Shown: positions 3,197 to 20,770, counted from the stretch's first letter. The stretch is 20,792 bases of DNA from Candidatus Thorarchaeota archaeon (GCA_016839445.1 JAEOUG010000165.1:1-20792); one strand, 5' to 3'. The notes: generated by a model not told the origin, from the sequence alone. Made by a program: numbers and translations.

Positions 3197-3355
3197 ATGG
3201 CACAGATCACGATGATTGTTTCAGTCATTAGTATCGCAGCTGCAGCGATACTTGGAATCCTCCTGGTTCTCTTCATACTCAGATTGAAGAAAGCGGGAGC
3301 AACTCGGCAATCGCTTCTGAATGAGATCAAGGAGGGTCCGAGCCAAAATGCGTAG
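3197..3355 (+). CDS. 52-aa single-pass membrane microprotein (absent from the supplied ORF track)
   Basis: Own translation: MAQITMIVSVISIAAAAILGILLVLFILRLKKAGATRQSLLNEIKEGPSQNA*. It has a ~22-residue hydrophobic stretch followed by RLKK, and its stop overlaps the ATG at 3348. An alternative start is ATG 3212. Confidence 0.6.
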   Translation: MAQITMIVSVISIAAAAILGILLVLFILRLKKAGATRQSLLNEIKEGPSQNA

Positions 3356-6300
3356 CAGACGATTCTTGCTCCTTCTGCCAATCCTGCTGATGCTTGTAGG
3401 TGCGTCCCAGATGCCTGCCTCTCTGTCTAGAAACGCAGGAATTGATCTTGGAGAAACAGCAGTCCTCTCTCAGAGCGGTCCGTACGACGGAGTAATCCCT
3501 ATGAATTCCTGTGTCTTTGTCGGAGACGTCTACAATGACTTCCAGAATGCGCTCTCCTACCTGGCGGCCGTACCACTCGCGGTAAGAAGCAATTCCACTC
3601 ACATGACATCTGGATTGCTGTTACCGGACACGGACTCGTATGAGACCCCGTTGGAGGAATGGCTGGCGCTCGCTGGATCTGCGACACAAGAGGCGATATA
3701 CATCGGTGACGTTACAAACCCCGACTTCATAGCTGCTGGGGGTATGGCTGACAACACGTTCTACATAGATGGTGAGAACTACTTCGATGTGGCTGCCGAG
3801 ATTGCCACGCAATTCTTTGGAGGCACTTCCGACGTCGTCCTAGTTGAGGCAAATCCGACTATCCAGTTCAACAACGACACCCTCTACGATACTACAGGTA
3901 ACCTGGGTGGTCTCCAATTCACGTACATTCATGGAACGACAAGCCAGAGCAACGACTGGGAGTGGTTTGGGACGTACAACCCGACTGAGGGGGGTGCCAT
4001 TATCAGTCTAGAGTACGACGGATCGCCATCAGGTTACATCTGGTTCGATCTCCTAGCAAGGGAAGATGGTGAGTACTATCCGCTAGACTATCCATATCTT
4101 GACGGGGAAACAGTCCGCTTCCCGTACACAAATCGGCCTGGCGAGACGTGGATCATCCACGCCATAGACCTCTACGATTATGTAAGGACAGTCACTCTGG
4201 ACATCAAGGTTGAGGTTCCACAGGCAGACTACTATGCCTTCACTGTGAATCCCGGAGAGGACTGTGTCATTGACTTCGAAGTCGATGTTCCATCAAACGC
4301 TGCCGTTGGTCTCAACGTGCTCGGCCCAACTGGCGACATTGTTCTAAGTGCGAATCGGTTTGCCCTCTTCTCTGAATACGGAGAGACCACAGGGTTCACG
4401 GCGTCGCTGGCTCATCCAGCTCCTGGATCCTACCAGGCTTATGTCTACAACGCCGAAACGTACTCAGTGGGCTACAGTATAGACATCACCAAGAAGGTCT
4501 TGATGGAGGATTGGGAGGAAGCTGGTGCTGCAGCAGCCAATGGCGCATCGATAGCAAGTGCATTGGGAGCTCCACTTCTCTATTACACCTCAGATGGCCT
4601 TCCATCGTACACAGTCGATGCACTGACCGCACTTCAGCCAGAGAGAGCAATCGTGGTTCGACCGATTGGTGCCCATGTCTACGATATTCAGACATACTTG
4701 GGTGGGATGGGTATCCTCTCAACGCGGTTGAACAGCTTCAGCGACATCCAGAGCTACCTTGACGTGCTCAATGGACGCACTGCTGGAACCGGAAGTGTTG
4801 TGCTCTACGATTCTTCTGGCACCTTCTTCTCTTCGGCAGGACTTGCAGCAACTCAGCGGCGTTCAGTTGCCATGCCGTTCAGCTACGGGGACTCGGGTCT
4901 CATGACCCTCTCGCAGATACCAGAACAGCTGAACTGGATGAGAGAGTACACGATGCCACTTGCATCCACGTTCTCTATACTTGATGTCTGGACGAGTTCC
5001 GGGCGACTCAGTGGTATGAATCCTCCGTATGCTTCCATGAGTGACATTGCTGACGCTTTCTACAGTTGGGTGGGACTGCATACCGGCATCAACAACCCTC
5101 AAACAACAATCACCATAGCTCCCTACCAAGGGTTCGGTGACACTCTTGCTCCAACCTTTGAGCGCGCGATAGCGGGTAGGACGAAGCCAGGTAGGTATCC
5201 TTCTGGTGAGAATGATGCAACACTGATTCAGATAATGCGCTCGATCCTCCGAGTTCCCTTGCAGACTGCGGCGTCGCGGTCTAAGGTTGGATTGGGCACT
5301 CATCTCGTATACTCGTACGACACCGTTGTTGAAACAAACACTCGCACACCAGTCTATGTATCGAACTCGGATGACTTCCCGAACTTCATGACGGATGCTG
5401 GATTGACCCCCGATCAGGAGGTTGGTCCTCAGGTCATCTCTGAGCTGGCATTATCGCCCTACTTCTGGTTAGCGTCGACGCACGGCGGAGTCGGAGGAGA
5501 GGGATACGACATTGAAGGAATCGCGGCTCTCATGCTCTGGGACGCATATCGAGGATATGACGAATCTGCCATTCCCTTCGACCCAGACTACAACGGCGAC
5601 GGAGTTGTCAATCCTCCTGAAGCCTACATCGATGGCTACAATGTGAGCCAGTTTGTGTCTGGTGTGGACCTCAATGGAATGTTCGCTTACTTCGACTCCT
5701 GTCAACTGGCATCGAGCTATGCTCCCGCCACTATGATGGAGGCAGGATGCGACGCGGTGGTTGCGTGTCGAGTAGATGCTCTGATTGGTGCTTCAGATCT
5801 CTTTGAGATGAATGTCATGGAGTCGATGTCAGGCGGAGAGGTCAGTCTAGGAGCTGCGATGAACGGCGCCTACCAAGTGAACTCACACGTCTATTCTACT
5901 GGATACGAGGGAGTCGACACCTACTCCACAGTCAGCACAGTCGGTGTGATTGGGGCGAGCTGCATTCAGTTTGTCATATACGGAGACCCCGATGTGACTC
6001 TACATGATCACAGCAAGACTCCAGCACCTTTCGCACCTCGTATCGGCGACATTGGGCCCGGTCGCACCGTGCGGGCTCATCCAGGCACTTCCTACGAGCT
6101 GCCGATTGGACCTCATGACCCAGTAGGCAATCTCTACGCAAAAGAGGGCGACTACGACATAGAGATCTACTCTCCCACTGCTGCACTCGTCGAGTCTGGT
6201 TCTGTCCACTGCACCGACTTGACGTTCGGAGGTTACGTGTTCAACATATCGGAGTCTGCTGCTCTCGGGCTGTACACGGTGGAGGTCACCGATACTTCTA

Positions 6301-8513
6301 CTCTTGAGGAGTACTCGTTCTCTATCCTTCTTGAGTGGCCAGTCCTAGAGGTCGTCCGACTCCAGACGACTCTGCTGTCGCAGTTCGGCTACTGGACCTT
6401 CGACCTCTCAGTGTTCAACCCTCAGGATGTTTATGCTGACACCATCATGACAGTGTATGTTGGAGGGCAAGTGCTATGGTCCGCAGATGTTGAGTGGGCC
6501 CCTGGCTACTCACAGATGTCAATCTACCGAGAAGTCGGATTCATGCCCTATGGTGCTGCCCAAGTCAGCGTCGTGCTCATTCTCAAGGTCACCTCGGCTC
6601 AGTGCTGTTCATTCTCAGACACTGTACATGTGAGCCTTCATTGGATCTCCATAGTCCTCTATGGTGTGGTGCCGGGTCTTGGCGTTGCTGCAGTCATTTT
6701 CGGCCTACTCGCTCAACGGAGTGGAAAGAAGAATAGCCTTCTGCAGACCGCCTTGGAGAAGGAAGTCCAGCATGACTATGAGGAGGCATTCAGCAACTAC
6801 ATGGATCTCGGCCTAGTGGAGGGTGGAATCCGGACTGCCGTGAAGGCTGGCTACACTGAGAAGGTCTTGGAACGAGTGATGCAGGCTCGGAACCCCCAGG
6901 TCAACGGGCTTCTTGCAGACTCTGCGCGAGGGCTCTACGAGAGAGGCGAGTTCTCTCTTGCTGGCAGAGTGTTCGAGTCGATTGGCGATTCGCTGGGACA
7001 GACGAAGTCCATGATAATGCACTGCCTCGCAACAGGTGATGCATCTGGTGCTGCAGATCTGATAAGGGGCCTGATCACCTCTGGTCGTCAGGACCTTGCC
7101 TCAGAGATGTTGCTAGAGAGTCAAACCAAGGGTCTCGCAGGGAAGGTTCTGGAAGGCATAGGAACTCCAGTGCTTGGCCTGATTCAGTTCATGGTTCGAC
7201 AGGGGAGGCCGTATCAACCGCTCCTCGATGGCGCCGTGCCTGAAGTGCAGGATGATGCGCTGCGACTGAGCTTATGGGTCGGCTTTGGGGCCATCGACCG
7301 AGTAGTAACTGAAGTCCTAGACGCATCATCTGTCGGAGAGATGGTTGAGATGACGAATCACTTGGCCGGAGACACGAGGACGTCTGTCGCCTCTGAAGTG
7401 GTGTCTCAGCTGGCTGCCGGAAAGAACTCCAAGAAGATCAAGGACTACCTCAGCGGCATTGGGCTTGACAATGCATCCTTCTCGTTGATTACGAGAGGAG
7501 TTGTCGACCAGCTGATGGACAACCCATCAGACAAGACGATGAGGAATCTTCTGAGTTCACTTGCCAAAGATGCACCCGGCAGTGATGCCTATGTTGCGGA
7601 GGTCTTCGAGGTTCTTGAGTTGGTGCAGGCCGGTGATTCGTCCGCGGCAGCAGCCATGGACGAGGGCAGAACCTTGAGTCTGATGGCAACGGTCTCTAAC
7701 CCTGCCGTAGTGGAGAAGCTTGTTGGCCGACTGCATCGAAGCAGGTTGGGTACTTCTCCGCTGGATTCTCTTCAGGTGTCTGACCTCGCCCAATACACCG
7801 TTAGACTGAGATATGCTGCAGTGGCTGCTCCCAAGCATGTATCGGACGTCGTCGAGAAAGAGCTCTCTGAAGTGGAGCCAATCCTGCGCCAGAAGATTAA
7901 GAGTCAGGCTAGGTCTGTCCTTATGGGACTAGACTTCAAGCCTGAGAGCAGCTGGTCTACCCATGCGACGGTAGAACAGCTCGTAATCCAGAGCGTAGAC
8001 AGGACTAATCCCTTCGCTACTATCGACGCGCTTGCAGATGCTGCAGGGGAGACCGGCTTCCCTGAGCTCGAGCAGTTGGTCGTCAAAACGATGAATGATG
8101 ATGAATCTGTCCGAGCATTCGTCAGGCGTGCAGTAAATGACCCTAGAATAAGACAGAAACTCGCGAGAGGGCAAGCTGTTCAGATGGGCGGACTACATGT
8201 TCCTCTATCAAACGAGCAGATTCTCGCCAACATCGCCAAAGAGGAATGGGACGCCAAGGCGGCCTACGCCTGGAAGAATGGTGTTCAGGCTAGCGCATTC
8301 GGAGTGCTCTCTAAGACTCTCTCAGAGATCGATAAGACGCGGCCGAACTGGCTGGAGGAGGCAACATCCCTGATCTGCAAGTACGTTGAGCATCTCAATG
8401 CTCGGAGGCTATACCACAAGAGTGGAACGAGTGCCGCGGTTAGATACCTATGCGAAGCAGCTGGAATGACGCCTCTGGAGGAGAGGTCCCTCAGAGACCG
8501 ATGTAGAATCTAG
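3348..8513 (+). CDS. Large type I membrane protein: signal peptide, CWB2-like repeats, beta-sandwich domains, C25/gingipain-like cysteine protease domain, Ig-like stalk, one TM helix, cytoplasmic TPR/alpha-solenoid region
   Basis: GGAGG at 3331-3335 precedes ATG 3348 (MRSRRFLLLLPILLMLVGA signal peptide). Protease motifs: GRYP (5190), STHGG (His 5481), FDSCQLA (Cys 5700), VIYGDP (5982). TM at 6642-6713 is followed by QRSGKK, then a helical C-terminal region of ~600 aa. Confidence 0.75.
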   Translation: MRSRRFLLLLPILLMLVGASQMPASLSRNAGIDLGETAVLSQSGPYDGVIPMNSCVFVGDVYNDFQNALSYLAAVPLAVRSNSTHMTSGLLLPDTDSYETPLEEWLALAGSATQEAIYIGDVTNPDFIAAGGMADNTFYIDGENYFDVAAEIATQFFGGTSDVVLVEANPTIQFNNDTLYDTTGNLGGLQFTYIHGTTSQSNDWEWFGTYNPTEGGAIISLEYDGSPSGYIWFDLLAREDGEYYPLDYPYLDGETVRFPYTNRPGETWIIHAIDLYDYVRTVTLDIKVEVPQADYYAFTVNPGEDCVIDFEVDVPSNAAVGLNVLGPTGDIVLSANRFALFSEYGETTGFTASLAHPAPGSYQAYVYNAETYSVGYSIDITKKVLMEDWEEAGAAAANGASIASALGAPLLYYTSDGLPSYTVDALTALQPERAIVVRPIGAHVYDIQTYLGGMGILSTRLNSFSDIQSYLDVLNGRTAGTGSVVLYDSSGTFFSSAGLAATQRRSVAMPFSYGDSGLMTLSQIPEQLNWMREYTMPLASTFSILDVWTSSGRLSGMNPPYASMSDIADAFYSWVGLHTGINNPQTTITIAPYQGFGDTLAPTFERAIAGRTKPGRYPSGENDATLIQIMRSILRVPLQTAASRSKVGLGTHLVYSYDTVVETNTRTPVYVSNSDDFPNFMTDAGLTPDQEVGPQVISELALSPYFWLASTHGGVGGEGYDIEGIAALMLWDAYRGYDESAIPFDPDYNGDGVVNPPEAYIDGYNVSQFVSGVDLNGMFAYFDSCQLASSYAPATMMEAGCDAVVACRVDALIGASDLFEMNVMESMSGGEVSLGAAMNGAYQVNSHVYSTGYEGVDTYSTVSTVGVIGASCIQFVIYGDPDVTLHDHSKTPAPFAPRIGDIGPGRTVRAHPGTSYELPIGPHDPVGNLYAKEGDYDIEIYSPTAALVESGSVHCTDLTFGGYVFNISESAALGLYTVEVTDTSTLEEYSFSILLEWPVLEVVRLQTTLLSQFGYWTFDLSVFNPQDVYADTIMTVYVGGQVLWSADVEWAPGYSQMSIYREVGFMPYGAAQVSVVLILKVTSAQCCSFSDTVHVSLHWISIVLYGVVPGLGVAAVIFGLLAQRSGKKNSLLQTALEKEVQHDYEEAFSNYMDLGLVEGGIRTAVKAGYTEKVLERVMQARNPQVNGLLADSARGLYERGEFSLAGRVFESIGDSLGQTKSMIMHCLATGDASGAADLIRGLITSGRQDLASEMLLESQTKGLAGKVLEGIGTPVLGLIQFMVRQGRPYQPLLDGAVPEVQDDALRLSLWVGFGAIDRVVTEVLDASSVGEMVEMTNHLAGDTRTSVASEVVSQLAAGKNSKKIKDYLSGIGLDNASFSLITRGVVDQLMDNPSDKTMRNLLSSLAKDAPGSDAYVAEVFEVLELVQAGDSSAAAAMDEGRTLSLMATVSNPAVVEKLVGRLHRSRLGTSPLDSLQVSDLAQYTVRLRYAAVAAPKHVSDVVEKELSEVEPILRQKIKSQARSVLMGLDFKPESSWSTHATVEQLVIQSVDRTNPFATIDALADAAGETGFPELEQLVVKTMNDDESVRAFVRRAVNDPRIRQKLARGQAVQMGGLHVPLSNEQILANIAKEEWDAKAAYAWKNGVQASAFGVLSKTLSEIDKTRPNWLEEATSLICKYVEHLNARRLYHKSGTSAAVRYLCEAAGMTPLEERSLRDRCRI

Positions 8514-8528
8514 GACTGGGGCTTGACG

Positions 8529-8552
8529 AGCGGCGGCAGAACTGCCACCGCT
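8529..8552. terminator. GC-rich stem-loop between convergent genes
   Basis: The minus strand reads AGCGGTGGCAG-TT-CTGCCGCCGCT, fully paired with one G-U pair, directly at the iorB stop codon. There is no U-tract. Confidence 0.5.
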
Positions 8553-9180
8553 AGGCTTGGAGGCACTCGCCTCCAGCCTCAAATCCCAAGTCGAAGGCCT
8601 TCGAGTTCGCCTCAACAGTCTTTGGAGGTACAAGTGCGAGCACCGCTTTCCTAACCTCTTCAGCAGGAATGGGAAACTCCTCACAGGCCACCGTGGCGCC
8701 AACCAGCACTGAGTTCTCGGTTCTTGCATTGCCTGCCTTCAGAGCGAGCTCCAGCGAGTCAAGAAGCACGACTCTCTTGGTGACCTTTCTAACCCGCTCC
8801 ACTATCTCATCGATGGTGAGGTATCTCTGCTTCTTCGACTTGTCCATAGCCACTGACTGCGTTTCTATCACAGAAGGCATAATCCTGTTGCTCATGATGA
8901 CAACGCCATCGTCCTTGAGGTACTCGATGTAGCGAAGAGCCTCAGACGCTTCCATTACAAGCATCATGTCGGCCTTTCCGTAGGGGATCAAAGGTGATAT
9001 CGGTTCTCCAATTCGAAAATGAACATAGATTGACCCCTGTCTTTGAGAGAGGCCGTGCTGCTCACCTGTCATGACCTTCATGCCGGCGTCTACAGCAGCC
9101 TTTCCGAGTATTGCAGACAGCAGCATGAGACCCTGGCCTCCTACTCCTGCAAACATGATGTCAAACGACTTCTTGGGCAT
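8551..9180 (-). CDS. iorB: Indolepyruvate:ferredoxin oxidoreductase beta subunit
   Basis: AGVGGQG, EQHGLSQRQGS and N-x-V-L-V-G motifs. The start is corrected to ATG 9180 (MPKKSF), which overlaps the iorA TGA (TGATG). Confidence 0.93.
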   Translation of the reverse strand: MPKKSFDIMFAGVGGQGLMLLSAILGKAAVDAGMKVMTGEQHGLSQRQGSIYVHFRIGEPISPLIPYGKADMMLVMEASEALRYIEYLKDDGVVIMSNRIMPSVIETQSVAMDKSKKQRYLTIDEIVERVRKVTKRVVLLDSLELALKAGNARTENSVLVGATVACEEFPIPAEEVRKAVLALVPPKTVEANSKAFDLGFEAGGECLQA

Positions 9181-11200: not shown

Positions 11201-11214
11201 AGAAGCTATATTTG
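11201..11214 (+). promoter_or_regulatory. Putative BRE/TATA element (AGAAGCTATATTT) for the GTPase operon
   Basis: Purine-rich run plus a TATA-like box about 60 nt upstream of ATG 11273, in the divergent intergenic region. Confidence 0.35.
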
Positions 11215-11272
11215 GGATTTGTACAAGCAAGTGGCGGGACCTTGACTACTTCGACTACAGGGACGTGCATCA

Positions 11273-11569
11273 ATGGAACTCACCTTCAAATGTCCTGAAT
11301 GCCAAGGAAAGTCTATACTCTCCATGAGCGATGAAGAGGCCGCTCAGATTAAGGAACGAATACGAAGTGAGGGGCGATCTCCGACACTCATCGTTCGATG
11401 CGAGAATAACCACGAACTACTTGTCACATTATACAATCCCCGGACAGGAGAGTCGTTAGGAGTACGGGACATCGTTGTACCTCACCGGTCGGAATCTGGG
11501 GAATCCTCGAAGAAGACGGGCTCCAAGGAAGTAGATTGGCTGGCAAAAGCCTTCGGGGGTGAAGACTAG
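11273..11569 (+). CDS. Small Zn-ribbon-like protein (CPEC...CENNH)
   Basis: CxxC at the N-terminus and CxxxH about 35 aa later, with a low-complexity linker and a C-terminal amphipathic segment (VDWLAKAF). Its stop overlaps the next GTG. Confidence 0.75.
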   Translation: MELTFKCPECQGKSILSMSDEEAAQIKERIRSEGRSPTLIVRCENNHELLVTLYNPRTGESLGVRDIVVPHRSESGESSKKTGSKEVDWLAKAFGGED

Positions 11570-11949
11570 TGGTTGTCAAACTCGTTGTCCGAGTAGAAAT
11601 GTGCGATATGTCTTCAAAGGTTCTCTTTCCGGAAGACGACACTACTGAGGAAAGAGCTGCTCTGTTGACTGGTATTGTTCAGCTCGTTTCTGTCGCCCTC
11701 AAGAGAGAGCAGGATGCCGACGCGGCTCTAGGCAGACCTCACTTCATGAAGTCTGACAAAGGAGTCATCGGATACGCCCAGACTACTGACGGATTCCTCT
11801 ACATTTGTGAGTCTGACAACGAAAGCGAGTCAGGTGATGTTCTTAGAGCGGTTGTGGACGCAGTCCACGCGACAGAAGAAGAGATTGTGAAGCGTATCAA
11901 GAAGGTGATGCGCAGACGCGGCGGCGAGATTGCAGGTCTCTGGGGGTAA
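11569..11949 (+). CDS. Longin/roadblock-like small domain protein
   Basis: 126 aa with an apparent beta-beta-alpha(AALLTGIVQLVSVAL)-beta-beta-beta-alpha-alpha order. GGGGTGA SD, TAGTG overlap, and located upstream of a small GTPase. Confidence 0.6.
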   Translation: MVVKLVVRVEMCDMSSKVLFPEDDTTEERAALLTGIVQLVSVALKREQDADAALGRPHFMKSDKGVIGYAQTTDGFLYICESDNESESGDVLRAVVDAVHATEEEIVKRIKKVMRRRGGEIAGLWG

Positions 11950-11964
11950 GAAGGAGGTAGAACG

Positions 11965-13359
11965 ATGGATTTCGAGCTTGCTTTGTACACGAGTGGAACA
12001 ATGACTGCAGTGCTGCTTGCTGCAATGCTAGTTGTCTATGGTGTGTCGATTCGCAGAGTCTTCGGCAACGTGACTAGCTCAACCAAGAGAGCACTGATCA
12101 TGTTTGGCTTGTCAGGTCTGATGACAGTAGTCGTTACGGTAGCTGGGTTGTACTTCCGGGGCTTCTTCCTCTCATGGATGGGTTTCTTCTTTGCATTCGT
12201 TGTGTCAACCATTCTGTATGTTCTCTACCCTGAAAGCCGTAGGGCATTCGTTGGCCGCTTGGTCACCTTCATCATCGCTTTCGGAATGCTTGCTGAGAAC
12301 TTCGTGAGAATGGTCTTGCTGCCTGGTTACACACAGATGTTCGAATACATGGGACTCACAATCCTACTTGTGGCCAGTTTCATCTACTCCATTATACTCG
12401 TGAGGGACACGCCGTCGGCATTCAGCGGTTCCATCCTCCTAGTTCTTGTGCTCTACGTGGTCACAGCAGCTACGGCGGCTACATCATTCATCTTCATACA
12501 CACCGAGTACTTCATCATCCAGTCACTTCCAATCATTGTTTCAGCAGCGGTCTTTGGGTCTGTCCTTAGGCCATGGAGGACTATGATCACACTCTTCATT
12601 GTCTTCCTGGCTGCGTCAATGGGTGGAGGACTGGTCTGGGCTGCTCTTCTTGCAGGAGATGTACTCATCTGGCAATTCACCATTGTGGCTGTCGCTGCCT
12701 GCATTTGCGTGGTTGCTCCGCTCAACTTCTTCATACAACAAGGCGCTGACACAGGTGCAAGGACTCCCCGCTTCATTGGTGTCGTGCTGATTGCCCTCTC
12801 TCTGCTGATACTGACCCACACCAACTCATGGGCTATCTACCTCATGGAGATTGGGCCAAAGGCTGCGCTAGTCTGGAATGAGTACATGGTGTCAGTGGAT
12901 GTCATTCTAGGAGTGATTGCCATTGGCACATTTGCCTTGGCTGCTTCTGCAGCATCATTTGGGGAGAGAACCTACTCCACAATCAGAGAGGTAGTTGTGG
13001 CACTCGGCACAGCCATTGCAGTCCTGGGTCTCTATCCTGTTCGCTTTGATCGCTGGCAGGCCAACGCTCTGTACCCGATCTTGGCCCTCTTGATGGCCGT
13101 TGGAGTCATCATGTTCATACGTGTGTCAGTCCGCATCTACAGAGCTGGAGCCACAAGGGCCGCTCAGAACTTCATGACGTTCATAGTCTCATCCTTGACG
13201 ATTGGCATAGTCGTTATGTTTTCTGACCAAATCGCGGCCATTAGTTTTGGCCTAGTACTACTGATGATGGCAGCCGCAGGAGCACTGGCTCTGGCAAGTA
13301 GCCCACCAGTCCTTGCGTCCATAGGGAAGAGATTTAGAGGGACTCAAGCGGGGACGTAA
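11965..13359 (+). CDS. Polytopic membrane protein, ~15 predicted TM helices, unknown function
   Basis: Strong SD (AAGGAGGT) before ATG 11965. About 15 hydrophobic segments with short loops, and Arg/Lys concentrated after the odd-numbered helices. Confidence 0.85.
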   Translation: MDFELALYTSGTMTAVLLAAMLVVYGVSIRRVFGNVTSSTKRALIMFGLSGLMTVVVTVAGLYFRGFFLSWMGFFFAFVVSTILYVLYPESRRAFVGRLVTFIIAFGMLAENFVRMVLLPGYTQMFEYMGLTILLVASFIYSIILVRDTPSAFSGSILLVLVLYVVTAATAATSFIFIHTEYFIIQSLPIIVSAAVFGSVLRPWRTMITLFIVFLAASMGGGLVWAALLAGDVLIWQFTIVAVAACICVVAPLNFFIQQGADTGARTPRFIGVVLIALSLLILTHTNSWAIYLMEIGPKAALVWNEYMVSVDVILGVIAIGTFALAASAASFGERTYSTIREVVVALGTAIAVLGLYPVRFDRWQANALYPILALLMAVGVIMFIRVSVRIYRAGATRAAQNFMTFIVSSLTIGIVVMFSDQIAAISFGLVLLMMAAAGALALASSPPVLASIGKRFRGTQAGT

Positions 13360-13376: not shown

Positions 13377-13925
13377 ATGACGATAGTGAAGGCTGTAGTT
13401 CTTGGCGATACGGAATGTGGCAAGACTTCCTTCACTAAGCGGTGGGTCACGGGCAACTTCCCAGACCCTGACTATCTTCGGACTACTATCGGGGTTTCCT
13501 TTGACACGAAGAAAGTCGAGCTGCCCGACGGCAGGAATGTCACTCTATCTCTCTTCGACTTCGGCGGCCAGACGCGATTCATCGAGCAACTGAAGGCCAT
13601 GATCCGGGGCACTGTTGTTGGTCTCTTGTTCTTCGATGTCAGCAGGCTTCAGACCTTTGACAATCTGATGAACTACTGGATGCCAATGATTGAAGAGAAC
13701 AGCACACTCAGGCTCCGCGAAGGAGACGGTAGTAGGTTCATTCTCGTGGCCAACAAGGTAGACCTCATTGACGATGAACGCATAGATTCTATTGGAGGCG
13801 AGATGTTGGACTTCGTCGAGGGGTTCGGCATGGCTGGGCAGTTCATCTCTGCGAAGACGGGTCTCGGAATGGAGAACCTTGACATGATGTTCCTTGAGGC
13901 TCTTCAAAGACACCTATCAGACTGA
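13377..13925 (+). CDS. Rab-like small GTPase (Ras superfamily)
   Basis: G1 GDTECGKTS, G2 TTIGVSF, G3 DFGGQ, G4 NKVD and G5 SAK; 182 aa. Confidence 0.95.
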   Translation: MTIVKAVVLGDTECGKTSFTKRWVTGNFPDPDYLRTTIGVSFDTKKVELPDGRNVTLSLFDFGGQTRFIEQLKAMIRGTVVGLLFFDVSRLQTFDNLMNYWMPMIEENSTLRLREGDGSRFILVANKVDLIDDERIDSIGGEMLDFVEGFGMAGQFISAKTGLGMENLDMMFLEALQRHLSD

Positions 13926-15263
13926 GTAGCTCATGCCTTCTACCTGGACATAGGGAAGGAGGTAGGTCTGATTGTCATATCTTGTGGCCAATCGTTCCTT
14001 ACTAATCGCAGTGATGTTCTTCAGGAGTTCGAAGACGTTCCCCGTCACTTGTATCTCCTTCAGAGTGTGTCTGAGCTCTCCGTCCTCTATCAGCTGACCT
14101 CCCTTCACCGGACCTGCGAAGACTCCTGAGACTGGATCCGGGAACGCACTAATCCTCGGGATAAGAATCCCCTTCCTGATGCCACCCAACATCTCATCAA
14201 CCGAAACACTACCAGCTGGTATCTCGATGTTTGTGCTAGAGATAGTTGGGGCTTGTCTGAATGTCCCTCTCGCGTGGCCAGTTGACTGCAATGACTCCTT
14301 GTTAGCAGTGAAGGCGTCATAGAGAATCCCCTTGAATACGCCTTTGTCTATGATCTTGTGCGGGCGATGAGGAATACCTTCTCTGTCAAAGGAAGCGCTC
14401 CCGGTTTCGCTCTCTTTGCTTCCATCGTCGATAATCGAGAGACTCGGTACCGCAATCTGCTCGCCAAGCCGATCGGCGAGGTAGCTTGCTCCGTCCTGTA
14501 TCCTACTGGCGCAAGCAGCAAGGACAAACGCATTGAGGAGCTCAACAAGGCAGTCTGGAGAGAGTATTGTCGGACCAGCCAAGGCTTCTGCCTTTTTCGC
14601 TCCAAGGTTTCGGACGACCCTCTCCCCGAAACCTGTCACTGTTGCTTCTATGTCCACCTTCTTCTTACTTGGAAAGGCCTCCAGGACATAGTCGAACGAG
14701 CCTATGTCGTCACCATCGACAGCCATCCCGAAGAGGAAGATTTGAAGGAATGTCTTCTTCTCCGATGACCTGATTCCGTTCGAGGAGAGAATTGCGCTCT
14801 CTACTGCGTTAGCTCCTAGGTTTGTAGAGTCTACTGAGATCCTCTCATCAAATGCTCTAACAGCTGAAAGGACATCGGCCGCATACTCAAGGACTTCATC
14901 CATTGAGAGGTCTTCCAAGTTCTTATCGTGAAGGCCCTTCACCCTCGAGATAGGCTGAGGATTGGGGAGCGAGTAGTGATCTATGCTCGGTGTCCCCTTA
15001 GCAATAGAGACCGCGGTTGCGATACCTTCCTCGATCCTTTCAGAGGCCAGCGAATTCACGCTCGTGAACCCGATGCACTTGTTGATGAGCACGCGGATTC
15101 CTACTCCATCCACAATGGTACTTGTCGCGCTCTTCAGGCTGTTTGACTCGATATTGATTGCTTTCTCCCTTCTCGACTGAGCAAACAGCTCGACTTCATC
15201 GGCTCCCGCCCTGAATGCCTTCTCTAGAATAGGATCTAGCGCGTCAAGCAATTCCCCACCCAT
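13917..15263 (-). CDS. pmbA: TldE/PmbA family protein (non-catalytic partner of TldD)
   Basis: GVGIRV, FDREG and GHA motifs, with no HExxxH. The start is corrected to ATG 15263 (MGGELL), 1 nt after the tldD stop, with a GGAGGTG SD at 15270-15276. Confidence 0.9.
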   Translation of the reverse strand: MGGELLDALDPILEKAFRAGADEVELFAQSRREKAINIESNSLKSATSTIVDGVGIRVLINKCIGFTSVNSLASERIEEGIATAVSIAKGTPSIDHYSLPNPQPISRVKGLHDKNLEDLSMDEVLEYAADVLSAVRAFDERISVDSTNLGANAVESAILSSNGIRSSEKKTFLQIFLFGMAVDGDDIGSFDYVLEAFPSKKKVDIEATVTGFGERVVRNLGAKKAEALAGPTILSPDCLVELLNAFVLAACASRIQDGASYLADRLGEQIAVPSLSIIDDGSKESETGSASFDREGIPHRPHKIIDKGVFKGILYDAFTANKESLQSTGHARGTFRQAPTISSTNIEIPAGSVSVDEMLGGIRKGILIPRISAFPDPVSGVFAGPVKGGQLIEDGELRHTLKEIQVTGNVFELLKNITAISKERLATRYDNQTYLLPYVQVEGMSYSV

Positions 15264-15264
15264 C

Positions 15265-16650
15265 TTATGCACCTCCACCTGAAACAAGAGCTTGGGCTCG
15301 AGTTGAGCCTCCTCCGCCATCAACCTTGGCCAGTTGCCCTTTGCCGCAGTACCCTGCTCCCATCGAGAGCTTCCAGTTCCTGCCAACAGCGTCGACAGAC
15401 ATGAGGACGTCGTATGCATTACCGGTAACAGCTAGGTCTCGAACGGGACGACCAATCTCTCCCTTCACAATCTCATAGGCTTCAGGAATCTGAAACATGA
15501 ACTCCGCGCTGCTGTCTGCCTGTCCTCCGCCAGGCTCGACACACAGGTATCCAAAATCAATCCCTTCGAGGACTTCTTCATGTGAGAGATTACCTGGCTC
15601 AAGGTAGGTGTTCCTCATTCGTATCAGAGGTTCAACATCGTATTCAAAGGCGCGCTCATTGCCGGTCGGCTCGACGCCGAAGTGGTGCGCCGAGTGCCGA
15701 CTGTGCAAGTATGACCTCATCATCCCCTTCTCTATGATCACAGTCTTCTTAGCTTCTACTCCTGCATCATCAACGGGTATCCAACCTGCACCATAGTCCT
15801 GTTCTCCAGAGTCAATTAATGTGACCTGATCTGATGCAACCTTCTTGCCAATCTTCCCTTTTGCCGCACTTCCTGACATCACGAAATCAGCTTCCACCGT
15901 ATGTCCGATGGCCTCATGTGCTATGAGTCCTACAACGCCGGGTTCCATGACTATCGTCTGTTTGCCACCCTTGGGAAATGGAGCATCCAGAAGCCTGAGA
16001 GCGAAGTCTGCGACACGGTCCGCCAACTCAAGGGGCGGTTTCTGCTTGAATATCTCCCATCCCCCTGTGATGCCGACTCCCGCAGCAGCCGGAACAATCT
16101 TCGAGCCCTCCGCAGCTATTGCCCTCAAGAACAACATGGGGCGGCTGTCTTTCAACTCGACATCGGTACCATCTGAGTTCATTATGATCTTGTGACTACG
16201 ACCCTCAGAGACCCATGAGAGGCAACCACTGATTCTCTTGTCGTGGCCGCGAGCCCTTGCGTCCATCTCCTTCACGATTCCTACAGCCTCTTCGACTCTG
16301 TGGTTCTCAAAGGGGTCCTTTCCCCTACTCTCGAAAGAACCGGTGACAGGCTTGATCGGAGCCAGCGTAATCTTGTCCTTCTTGGTCTTTGCCAGAGTCC
16401 TTGCGGCTGTTACCGCGTCAGCAAGCGCTTCATCTACTGCGCTACTGTCAATCTTGCTGGTACTCGCGTAGCCCCAGGCCCCATCAACAAGCACCCGAAT
16501 TCCTATACCAGCGAAGTCGTCGACATTGGCCCTCTCAAGTCGCCCCTTGTCCATCCTTATCTGCGTGTTTCTATGGTGATGGTATCGGGCTTCGATATGA
16601 ACACCTTCTGGGCACTTCTCAACGGCTCTGCCAACTAGGTCTCTTATCAT
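15265..16650 (-). CDS. tldD: TldD metalloprotease
   Basis: GIGIRV...GAWGYAS, metal motif HEAIGH, DDAG, TGN-x-R, RMRNT and C-terminal CGK. Confidence 0.95.
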   Translation of the reverse strand: MIRDLVGRAVEKCPEGVHIEARYHHHRNTQIRMDKGRLERANVDDFAGIGIRVLVDGAWGYASTSKIDSSAVDEALADAVTAARTLAKTKKDKITLAPIKPVTGSFESRGKDPFENHRVEEAVGIVKEMDARARGHDKRISGCLSWVSEGRSHKIIMNSDGTDVELKDSRPMLFLRAIAAEGSKIVPAAAGVGITGGWEIFKQKPPLELADRVADFALRLLDAPFPKGGKQTIVMEPGVVGLIAHEAIGHTVEADFVMSGSAAKGKIGKKVASDQVTLIDSGEQDYGAGWIPVDDAGVEAKKTVIIEKGMMRSYLHSRHSAHHFGVEPTGNERAFEYDVEPLIRMRNTYLEPGNLSHEEVLEGIDFGYLCVEPGGGQADSSAEFMFQIPEAYEIVKGEIGRPVRDLAVTGNAYDVLMSVDAVGRNWKLSMGAGYCGKGQLAKVDGGGGSTRAQALVSGGGA

Positions 16651-19693: not shown

Positions 19694-20770
19694 CTATTTC
19701 CATTCGATTCTGTCATCTTCGATGAGTTCGTCGATTGCGTCAGGGATTCTCTTCTGTTTTTTCAGAGACCCTTGGGCCTCAAGCACTGTATCCTCTGAGA
19801 CCATGAGGTCTTCGAGATCTGAGCAAGAGAAGAGCGGCGTCACGTCAATCTTGTCGAAGCTGTTGTCCTCTGGATGATCACTGAAGAGATACAGCTCGGT
19901 GAGTCTCTGACATGTCGCCAAGGGTGACAGGTCTACTTCCGTTAGTTCATTCCCGGCGATGTCTAGAAACGAGAGCTGAGGCGTGAATGAGAGGGGAGTA
20001 AGGTCGAGCCGTTCAATACGGTTCATAGCAAGACCTAGTCTGACTAGGTTCTTGCAGCTCTGCAGCGGACCTAGGTCAATCGATTTGAGCCCATTACCTG
20101 CAAGCCTGAGGATTCTCAGGTCTCCACATCTGGACAGCGGGCTGAGGTCTATTGTCTCGAGTCTGTTGTGGTGGAGGTAGAGGAACCTCAGGTTGGTGCA
20201 CTCTTTCAATGGAGTGAGGTCTACACTTCCTAGCTGATTATACATGAGATTGAGCTGCTTGAGTTGTGTACAAGCTGAGAGAGGATCCAGCTTGATGGAG
20301 GTGAGGCTGTTGTTTTCCACTTCAAGAGACTCTAGTTGAATGCAAGCGGACAAGGGTTCAAGATCAATCGACTCAAGGGAGTTGTTGAATAGCCGTAGTC
20401 GCTTCAGCTTCATGGAGTTTGAGAGCGGAGAGAGGTCGATGGTCTTCAGTTGGTTGGTTCCTAGATTCAGCTCTGCAAGATTCGTACAAGAGCTCAGGGG
20501 TCCAAGGTTGATTGCCTTCAGTCCGTTCTTGAATAGGTCTAGGCTAGTCAATGTTCTGCAATCAGACAATGGGTCTAGATTTACTTCCTGAAGGTCATTG
20601 CGGCCCAAATCGAGTGTGAGCAAGCCCGGAAGGTGAGCTACTTGGCTTAGATCAATAGAGGAAACCTTGCTGTGACTAAGATCCAGCTTCCCTTCATTGT
20701 CCTCTTCGTCATACTCCACCGTGACCGACTTGCCTTCCTTGTCAGTATATGTGACTGTGCTCTCACTCAT
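19694..20770 (-). CDS. Leucine-rich repeat protein with ~12 repeats of 24 aa
   Basis: Ten consecutive exact 24-aa repeats with consensus LxxLxLxxNxLxxIDLxPLxxCxx, plus flanking irregular repeats. No signal peptide or TM. Confidence 0.95.
   Translation of the reverse strand: MSESTVTYTDKEGKSVTVEYDEEDNEGKLDLSHSKVSSIDLSQVAHLPGLLTLDLGRNDLQEVNLDPLSDCRTLTSLDLFKNGLKAINLGPLSSCTNLAELNLGTNQLKTIDLSPLSNSMKLKRLRLFNNSLESIDLEPLSACIQLESLEVENNSLTSIKLDPLSACTQLKQLNLMYNQLGSVDLTPLKECTNLRFLYLHHNRLETIDLSPLSRCGDLRILRLAGNGLKSIDLGPLQSCKNLVRLGLAMNRIERLDLTPLSFTPQLSFLDIAGNELTEVDLSPLATCQRLTELYLFSDHPEDNSFDKIDVTPLFSCSDLEDLMVSEDTVLEAQGSLKKQKRIPDAIDELIEDDRIEWK

Follow-up and report, generated by a model that had tools for sequence, protein, structure and literature searches.

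A 15-helix membrane protein with a predicted GPCR-like C-terminal bundle in a conserved Rab-like GTPase gene cassette of Thorarchaeota

What kind of membrane protein is encoded directly upstream of a small GTPase gene in a Thorarchaeota genome, and do the two neighbours belong together? This question is raised by a stretch of 20,792 nucleotides from a Candidatus Thorarchaeota archaeon (GCA_016839445.1, JAEOUG010000165.1:1-20792; referred to at its full length as the window), in which a membrane protein gene occupies positions 11965-13359. A first reading of the sequence alone, here called the original prediction, had proposed that the gene encodes a fused pair of receptor-like seven-transmembrane (7TM) bundles, formed by the transmembrane (TM) helices TM1-7 and TM9-15 and joined by an inverting TM8. 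We found that the gene is the third of a cassette of four genes, whose order is strictly conserved among related loci, and that the C-terminal half of its 15-TM product is confidently modelled with a fold resembling that of G protein-coupled receptors (GPCRs). The explanation that we favour, and in which we place moderate confidence, is that the 15-TM protein acts in the membrane as a sensor or anchor, by which the Rab-like GTPase encoded downstream would be docked or regulated, with a small protein of the same cassette, p126, as cofactor. The binding of the GTPase, the sensing and the roles of the small proteins are the parts of this explanation that we infer.

The membrane protein gene (11965..13359, plus strand) is an open reading frame (ORF) that begins with ATG and comprises 464 codons, for a protein of 464 amino acids, and a Shine-Dalgarno-like GGAGG can be read directly in the sequence at 11953..11957 on the same strand, eight bases ahead of the ATG. 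The relatives of the protein share a conserved MDF N-terminus (D2 in 43 of 50 sequences). A set of 5.8 billion clustered proteins was found to contain one fragment of 256 amino acids and 13 close relatives, 404-482 amino acids long, and a search of 1.84 billion proteins returned 51 cluster representatives at E <= 0.001. Nearly all of these representatives are 441-482 amino acids long; the shorter ones span one end only and would be fragments cut off at contig ends. Judged from its sequence and that of its relatives, this is a genuine gene on which selection acts. The query had no Pfam match at E <= 1, NCBIfam gave no match either, the 50 homologues hit no relevant Pfam family, and a PDB sequence search with the family profile yielded 0 matches at E <= 10. 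As far as such profile searches can tell, the 15-TM protein thus represents an orphan family that is unannotated.

The original prediction had counted 15 hydrophobic segments, and the same number was obtained by Kyte-Doolittle hydropathy of the query, by hydropathy averaged over an alignment of 50 homologues, and in an AlphaFold2 model of the whole protein built on that alignment, which was also used for comparing the two halves. The model is of high confidence, with a mean predicted local distance difference test score (pLDDT) of 94.1 and a predicted template modelling score (pTM) of 0.91. It places TM1-TM8 at residues 3-35, 38-63, 65-87, 92-118, 125-148, 152-172, 180-198 and 204-230, and TM9-TM15 at residues 233-250, 266-295, 306-331, 334-355, 366-393, 397-418 and 420-444. 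Two further helices are present in the model: a short one, which lies in a cytoplasmic loop at residues 253-263, and one at the C-terminal end (447-461), short, basic and amphipathic, in agreement with the tail that had been expected to follow the last helix. Lysine and arginine are concentrated in the loops assigned to the inside, with a family mean of 20.5 over the eight inside-assigned loops versus 2.6 over the eight outside-assigned ones (19 versus 4 in the query), and every basic cluster listed earlier as following an odd-numbered helix was found at that place. By the positive-inside rule, this distribution supports an N-out/C-in topology, as originally claimed; for a protein with 15 helices, this topology necessarily gives TM1-7 and TM9-15 the same orientation. 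The lack of MFS, ABC and rhodopsin motifs was likewise borne out, as no such family was matched and no retinal lysine is present. A microbial (type I) rhodopsin was considered as a candidate and rejected: the retinal lysine of the seventh helix is missing (lysine in the TM15 core in 0 of 50 sequences, in TM7 in 1 of 50), and there was no Pfam match.

The C-terminal part of the protein (residues 231-464; 12655..13356, plus strand), comprising TM9-TM15 and the amphipathic helix at 447-461, was also modelled separately. Built on 54 aligned sequences, this model reached a pLDDT of 93.9 and a pTM of 0.89 and showed the same secondary structure as the full model. When it was used to search the PDB with Foldseek, all of the 46 matches listed (46/46) were GPCRs, mainly of class A, in addition to a taste receptor, a class T receptor and GABA-B. 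Query-normalised TM-scores against the listed GPCRs were between 0.44 and 0.56, with 34 of the 46 at 0.50 or above, the Foldseek probability was 1.00, and E-values ranged from 2.4e-3 to 1.3e-2. The same targets gave near-equal root mean square deviations (rmsd) with the C-terminal half and with the whole model (6.3 versus 6.2 Å for 9f33_R, 6.5 versus 6.5 Å for 7xmt_R) and similar TM-scores, which indicates that the GPCR matches of the whole model lie on the C-terminal half and that this half is a self-contained bundle. Residues 231-464 are predicted to form a GPCR-like bundle of seven helices that stands on its own, with N-out/C-in orientation.

Several caveats apply to this likeness to GPCRs. 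The rmsd between the C-terminal half and the listed GPCRs is mostly 5.9-8.4 Å at a sequence identity of 11-17%, and none of the listed PDB matches reached E <= 0.001. GPCR chains are abundant in the PDB, and any up-down bundle of seven helices may draw them. The GPCR microswitch motifs are defined as D/ERY, CWxP and NPxxY; a regular-expression scan of residues 231-464 detected no NPxxY and no CWxP, and the sole match to [DE]R[YWFH], DRW at 361-363, is located in an outside loop, so that there is no DRY microswitch. In addition, neither the query nor any of the 50 homologues (the latter at E <= 0.1) matched a 7tm family of Pfam. We regard the model-based evidence for a GPCR fold of the C-terminal half as moderate to weak, and the predicted likeness is one at the level of the fold, which does not imply homology or common descent.

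For the protein as a whole, no PDB structure was matched by the 15-TM model at E <= 0.001. The best whole-length matches were to MATE, POT, MFS and nitric-oxide-reductase (NOR) structures, with query-normalised TM-scores of 0.13-0.25 and E-values of at least 0.1. The original prediction had named a transporter fold with 12 or 14 TM helices as an outcome that would speak against it, and had proposed a Foldseek comparison with GPCR and transporter folds; the comparison returned GPCRs for the C-terminal half and no global transporter match, the best whole-length TM-score (query-normalised) being 0.25 at most. Readings as an MFS, MATE or POT transporter, as a GT-C-type protein or as a CREST hydrolase were dropped, as either the motifs or a global fold match were missing.

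These results bear on an alternative in which the 15-TM protein is a transporter or transceptor that is controlled by the GTPase or reports through it, comparable to SLC38A9-Ragulator-Rag or FeoB, and not a pure receptor or anchor. The number of helices, the very short loops and the conserved polar residues at helix ends (E/D111, found in 27 of the 50 sequences, D/E312, H285 and D/E421) would fit such a protein; the eight N-terminal helices, to which no fold is assigned, leave room for it, and the tandem paralogues found in 8 of the 30 runs of membrane protein genes described below could pair. However, neither Pfam nor NCBIfam provided a transporter family, the whole-length TM-scores and E-values are those given above, no inverted repeat is seen in the sequence, and conserved charges occur in helix cores only near the outer ends. 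We consider a transporter or transceptor unlikely.

High-probability local Foldseek matches of the whole model were restricted to GPCRs (TM-score 0.41-0.50, target-normalised) and mouse Myomaker (TM-score 0.43-0.47, target-normalised, over 217-230 columns; E 0.19-0.83). Myomaker is missing among the matches listed for residues 231-464. For targets shared by both searches, E-values were 42- to 212-fold lower with the C-terminal half than with the whole model, and Myomaker would thus be expected near the top of the search with the C-terminal half if it matched that half. By elimination, the Myomaker-like match probably lies on the N-terminal part (TM1-TM8 in the AlphaFold2 model, residues 1-230; 11965..12654, plus strand), which would then probably resemble another 7TM protein than the C-terminal half does. 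When a profile of the first 203 residues (29 sequences) was searched against candidates of 109-361 amino acids, nothing was found at E <= 0.01, but this search was insensitive and missed known N-terminal fragments of 276-285 amino acids. The clusters of a protein atlas nearest to residues 1-203 were unnamed proteins of 189-263 amino acids (scores 0.90-0.91) and gave no usable lead.

A second alternative, which concerns the architecture of the protein and not its function, is an internal duplication, by which TM1-7 and TM9-15 would be two equivalent receptor-like 7TM bundles linked by an inverting TM8. This would agree with the same orientation that 15 helices and the N-out/C-in topology force on both sets of helices, with the GPCR-like C-terminal half, and with the probable position of the local matches to Myomaker, itself a 7TM protein, on the N-terminal part. 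In contrast, comparison of half against half by hhalign, with the 50-homologue alignment split at seven boundary pairs, resulted in a probability of at most 12.5%, over 48 columns, and the best of these alignments pairs TM1-loop-TM2 with TM13-loop-TM14, outside the register of a 7+1+7 arrangement. The conserved motifs of one half are not repeated in the other, the lengths of helices and loops do not correspond, and the halves resemble different 7TM proteins if the assignment of Myomaker holds. The sequence comparisons thus give no sign of a duplicated 7TM unit, and we judge an internal duplication unlikely. What stood of the fused pair of receptor-like bundles initially put forward is the GPCR-like C-terminal member; sequence similarity between the two members was not found in the comparisons by hhalign.

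Whether the membrane protein and the GTPase belong together was addressed by their gene order. The GTPase that the original prediction had placed directly downstream is encoded by a Ras-family gene that starts 17 bases on, at 13377, and the link is conserved beyond this genome. The cassette begins with the gene for a zinc-ribbon protein, continues with that for an orphan protein of about 126 amino acids (p126) and with the gene for the 15-TM protein, in single or double copy, and ends with the Rab-like GTPase gene. In the window, all four are on the plus strand; the first two overlap by one base, the GTG start of gene 2 with the TAG stop of gene 1, and gaps of 15 and 17 bases lie ahead of the membrane protein gene and the GTPase gene, respectively. 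We counted synteny in 28 related loci from related genomes and public contigs (29 were searched; L013 was left out as it overlaps L007), which contain 30 runs of membrane protein genes. The p126 gene precedes the membrane protein gene in all 28 runs with upstream sequence, and the GTPase gene follows it in 25 of the 26 runs with downstream sequence. Gene order is kept down to an identity of 27-37% to the membrane protein of the window. Two tandem paralogues of the 15-TM protein are located between the p126 and GTPase genes in 8 of the 30 runs (L007/L013, L031, L032, L034, L038, L040, L044 and L045), and whole cassettes are doubled in tandem in L016 (at about 3324-6001 and 6086-8709), L033 and L042. 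Tandem paralogues might form hetero-oligomers. The cassette is flanked by housekeeping genes on the opposite strand, which encode subunits of an indolepyruvate/pyruvate-type oxidoreductase and TldD/PmbA peptidases.

This conserved order could be merely inherited within one lineage, with a membrane protein functionally unrelated to the GTPase next to it. All loci are from one taxonomic family, so that synteny may partly reflect shared descent, and one membrane protein gene is not followed by a GTPase gene. Yet the order has been kept at the low level of sequence identity mentioned above and through duplication both of the whole cassette and of the membrane protein gene alone, and in the window neighbouring genes of the cassette overlap or lie fewer than 20 bases apart. 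A purely inherited adjacency is in our view very improbable.

Gene 4 of the cassette (13377..13925, plus strand) encodes a Rab-like small GTPase of 182 amino acids, which matches the Pfam family Ras with an E-value of 2.7e-23 and 82.8 bits (cut-off 21.6). With the G1-G5 motifs and the match to the Ras profile, its sequence is that of a Rab/Ras-type GTPase. The best match in a PDB sequence search is a Thorarchaeota Rab (7ezb; 1.8e-18), followed by the eukaryotic Rab28, Rab38, Rab32 and Rab8. In 23 cassette GTPases the motif GDxExGKTS, T36/T37, DFGGQ (in which the catalytic glutamine is kept), NKxD and SAK/SAR are conserved, and a C-terminal cysteine is found in none of them. The glutamate of the P-loop motif GDxExGKTS is invariant (23/23) and occupies the position of Ras Gly13. 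A conserved insert of 17 residues (EENS...GDG.RF) precedes NKxD in the cassette GTPases and is absent from 7ezb. The invariant glutamate and the insert may point to an unusual mechanism involving a GTPase-activating protein (GAP), and both set the cassette GTPases apart from the Thorarchaeota Rab, although 7ezb likewise lacks prenylation cysteines. The structure of the latter was solved for a protein without the prenylated cysteines of eukaryotic Rabs (PMC10933270); the term 'membrane protein' is absent from the main text of that paper, and no membrane partner is named in the available passages.

The two genes at the start of the cassette encode small proteins. Gene 1 (11273..11569, plus strand) is an ORF for a zinc-ribbon protein of 98 amino acids (Zn98) and opens the cassette at related loci as well. 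C7, C10, C43, H47, the motif GRSPT and a C-terminal E-x-DW-x4-FG are invariant in 21 sequences of Zn98; its sole Pfam match is Zn_ribbon_Brz with 21.4 bits, under the cut-off of 27.9. About 60 bases ahead of this gene, in the gap of 190 bases to the divergent oxidoreductase gene, an A/T-rich stretch (CTATATTT, 11202-11216, plus strand) represents a possible archaeal TATA element. Gene 2 (11569..11949, plus strand) is an ORF for p126, an orphan soluble protein of 126 amino acids, which has no match in Pfam or NCBIfam; a PDB sequence search with its profile returned two matches at chance level (E about 0.75). At E <= 0.01, a profile search for relatives of p126 returned 180 proteins. Of the 120 relatives listed, not one contains a Pfam domain, all names given to them are 'hypothetical protein', and nearly all are from Thorarchaeota records. 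Both small proteins end in short conserved tails with aromatic residues and glycine (Zn98, E-x-DW-x4-FG(G); p126, L-W-G), through which they could dock to one and the same partner.

Some leads as to the nature of p126 come from its language-model neighbours in the protein atlas, where, of the two nearest clusters (0.90 each), the first bears the name 'Roadblock/LAMTOR2' and the second has Fuz_longin_1 in 34% of the proteins that it comprises. Moreover, Intu_longin_1 was matched by 2 of 14 members of the p126 family, below threshold (best E 0.12). The fold of a longin domain is beta-beta-alpha-beta-beta-beta-alpha-alpha. From these leads, p126 is possibly a longin- or roadblock-like protein. 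It is not, however, among the four Fuz_longin_1 matches of the genome at E <= 1, and assignment to the Roadblock/LC7 (MglB-like) proteins found no support, with no match to Robl_LC7 and an hhalign probability of 0.5% against 10 of the Robl_LC7 proteins encoded in the same genome.

The pattern of conservation along the 15-TM protein suggests where partners might bind. The best-conserved loops are cytoplasmic (loops 5-6, 7-8, 9-10 and 13-14, mean conservation 0.55-0.66), compared with 0.12-0.45 for the outside loops beyond the four-residue N-terminus. Conserved cytoplasmic stretches are S/T-P-S-x-F (149-153) and R-P-W-R (202-205) in the N-terminal part, and P-L-x-F-F-x-x-Q...A-R-T-P (252-268), G-A-x-R-A-A (395-400) and S-S-P (445-447) in the C-terminal part. 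Within the inside loops, G395 and P447 are present in 50 of 50 sequences, F256 in 49, R205 in 48 and P268 in 47. The most conserved stretches are found on the assigned cytoplasmic face, where the two parts of the protein join. A further conserved group, H285 (46/50), W304 (36/50), D/N305 (42/50), D/E312 (46/50) and D/E421 (43/50), is located where the helices of the C-terminal bundle end on the outer side, given the assigned topology.

Strict synteny and a GTPase that lacks an anchor of its own are the reasons for which we read the 15-TM protein as a sensor or anchor. It would be a two-part membrane protein, in which eight N-terminal helices are followed by the GPCR-like bundle of seven helices, with the basic amphipathic helix at the end, and the loops conserved on its cytoplasmic side would serve to hold or regulate the GTPase at the cell membrane. 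A ligand or ion may bind to the polar cluster conserved on the outward side, p126 might act as an exchange or GAP cofactor for the GTPase, and Zn98 might serve as adaptor or output. Among the points that count against a sensor or anchor are the small overall contrast in conservation between inside loops and membrane segments (0.48 versus 0.47), the eight N-terminal helices left without a fold assignment, and the exceptional locus L041, in which a second cassette comes directly after the membrane protein gene and the intervening GTPase gene is missing. Prediction of the 15-TM protein in complex with the GTPase gave a score of 0.00 (mark 0.32), which weighs neither for nor against binding.

Several known systems invite comparison with the cassette. 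Class A GPCRs, such as the turkey beta1-adrenergic receptor (4ami) and the dopamine D2/D3 receptors (8irs, 9f33), resemble the C-terminal bundle in their seven helices, the N-out/C-in orientation and the amphipathic helix after the seventh helix, and the gene for the 15-TM protein is likewise paired with that of a GTPase of the Ras-like superclass. In contrast to these receptors, the 15-TM protein has eight additional N-terminal helices, is archaeal and shows neither sequence similarity nor the motifs, and the cassette GTPase is a small Rab-like protein and not a heterotrimeric G-alpha. LYCHOS (GPR155) acts together with longin-containing regulators of small GTPases. According to the available text of two reports, it is a 17-TM hybrid of a PIN-like transporter and a GPCR (PMC11525196, PMC11574030), and thus, like the 15-TM protein, has an N-terminal membrane domain of several helices fused to seven GPCR-like C-terminal helices; its N-terminal domain comprises 10 helices versus 8 in the 15-TM protein, in which a DEP domain is missing. 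LYCHOS chains are weak matches to the whole 15-TM model (8u5v: query-normalised TM-score 0.18, probability 0.15), and we regard the likeness as an architectural analogy and not as membership in the same group.

Four-gene cassettes with a small GTPase are known from prokaryotes, namely the conservon of actinobacteria (CvnA-D), reportedly introduced by Komatsu et al. in 2006, and the Rup systems of Group 1. Prokaryotic cassettes with Ras-superfamily GTPases (PMC4316618) correspond to the Thorarchaeota cassette in that a membrane component is conserved together with the GTPase and with small proteins that are uncharacterised. In those systems, the membrane component is histidine kinase-like or single-pass and a recognisable MglB/roadblock regulator is present, whereas the cassette described here encodes a 15-TM protein, one half of which is GPCR-like, the candidate regulator p126, in which no roadblock signature was detected, and a Rab-like GTPase. 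GPCR-like 7TM domains in bacterial proteins have been reported for DgcT/CdgI of E. coli, as stated in the available text (PMC10760455), and the accessible part of a paper on the origins of GPCRs contains nothing on Asgard 7TM proteins (PMC13466386). In the full-text literature on Asgard small GTPases in connection with membranes, longin, 7TM proteins or GPCRs, neither the family nor the cassette is described, with the proviso that supplementary tables may list the cassette. The cassette is an undescribed form of membrane-linked small-GTPase cassette, whose notable part is the predicted GPCR-like domain within a protein of 15 helices.

The distribution of the 15-TM family was determined with its profile in a sample of 301 genomes drawn from the phylum. 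It was detected in 37 of the 76 other genomes of the taxonomic family to which the window belongs and in 0 of 224 genomes from 29 other families, where, the genomes being incomplete, it is to be regarded as not found in those searched. Within its own taxonomic family it occurs in 14 of 16 genera, including that of the window. Descent of a eukaryotic system from this cassette is disfavoured by the occurrence of the family in one taxonomic family only.

Among the other features of the window, an ORF of 1730 amino acids (3321-8513, plus strand) has no Pfam family at E <= 0.001, and a leucine-rich-repeat protein (LRR_4, 4.2e-33) is encoded at 19694-20770 on the minus strand, running off the end of the window so that its N-terminus lies beyond it. 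The TldD/PmbA-type metallopeptidases flanking the cassette are encoded by a pair of genes on the minus strand (13917-15419 and 15265-16650). As listed, the two frames share about 155 bases, and the downstream gene of the pair probably has a later start.

Asgard archaea encode many eukaryote-like small GTPases, and for one of them the cassette provides a concrete, conserved set of four candidate partners. If the encoded proteins bind each other, they would represent a compact system for recruiting a Rab-like switch to the membrane outside eukaryotes and would allow one to ask whether the coupling of receptors to GTPases predates eukaryotes. A bolder proposal, which we consider quite unlikely, is that in Thorarchaeota a membrane protein with a GPCR fold, under the control of a ligand, docks a Rab-like GTPase or works as its exchange factor, helped by a longin-like cofactor. 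If true, this would be a relay from receptor to GTPase in close archaeal relatives of eukaryotes, built, by descent or convergence, from the same two folds as the signalling between GPCRs and G proteins, and it would explain how Asgard Rab-like GTPases without an anchor of their own get to the membrane.

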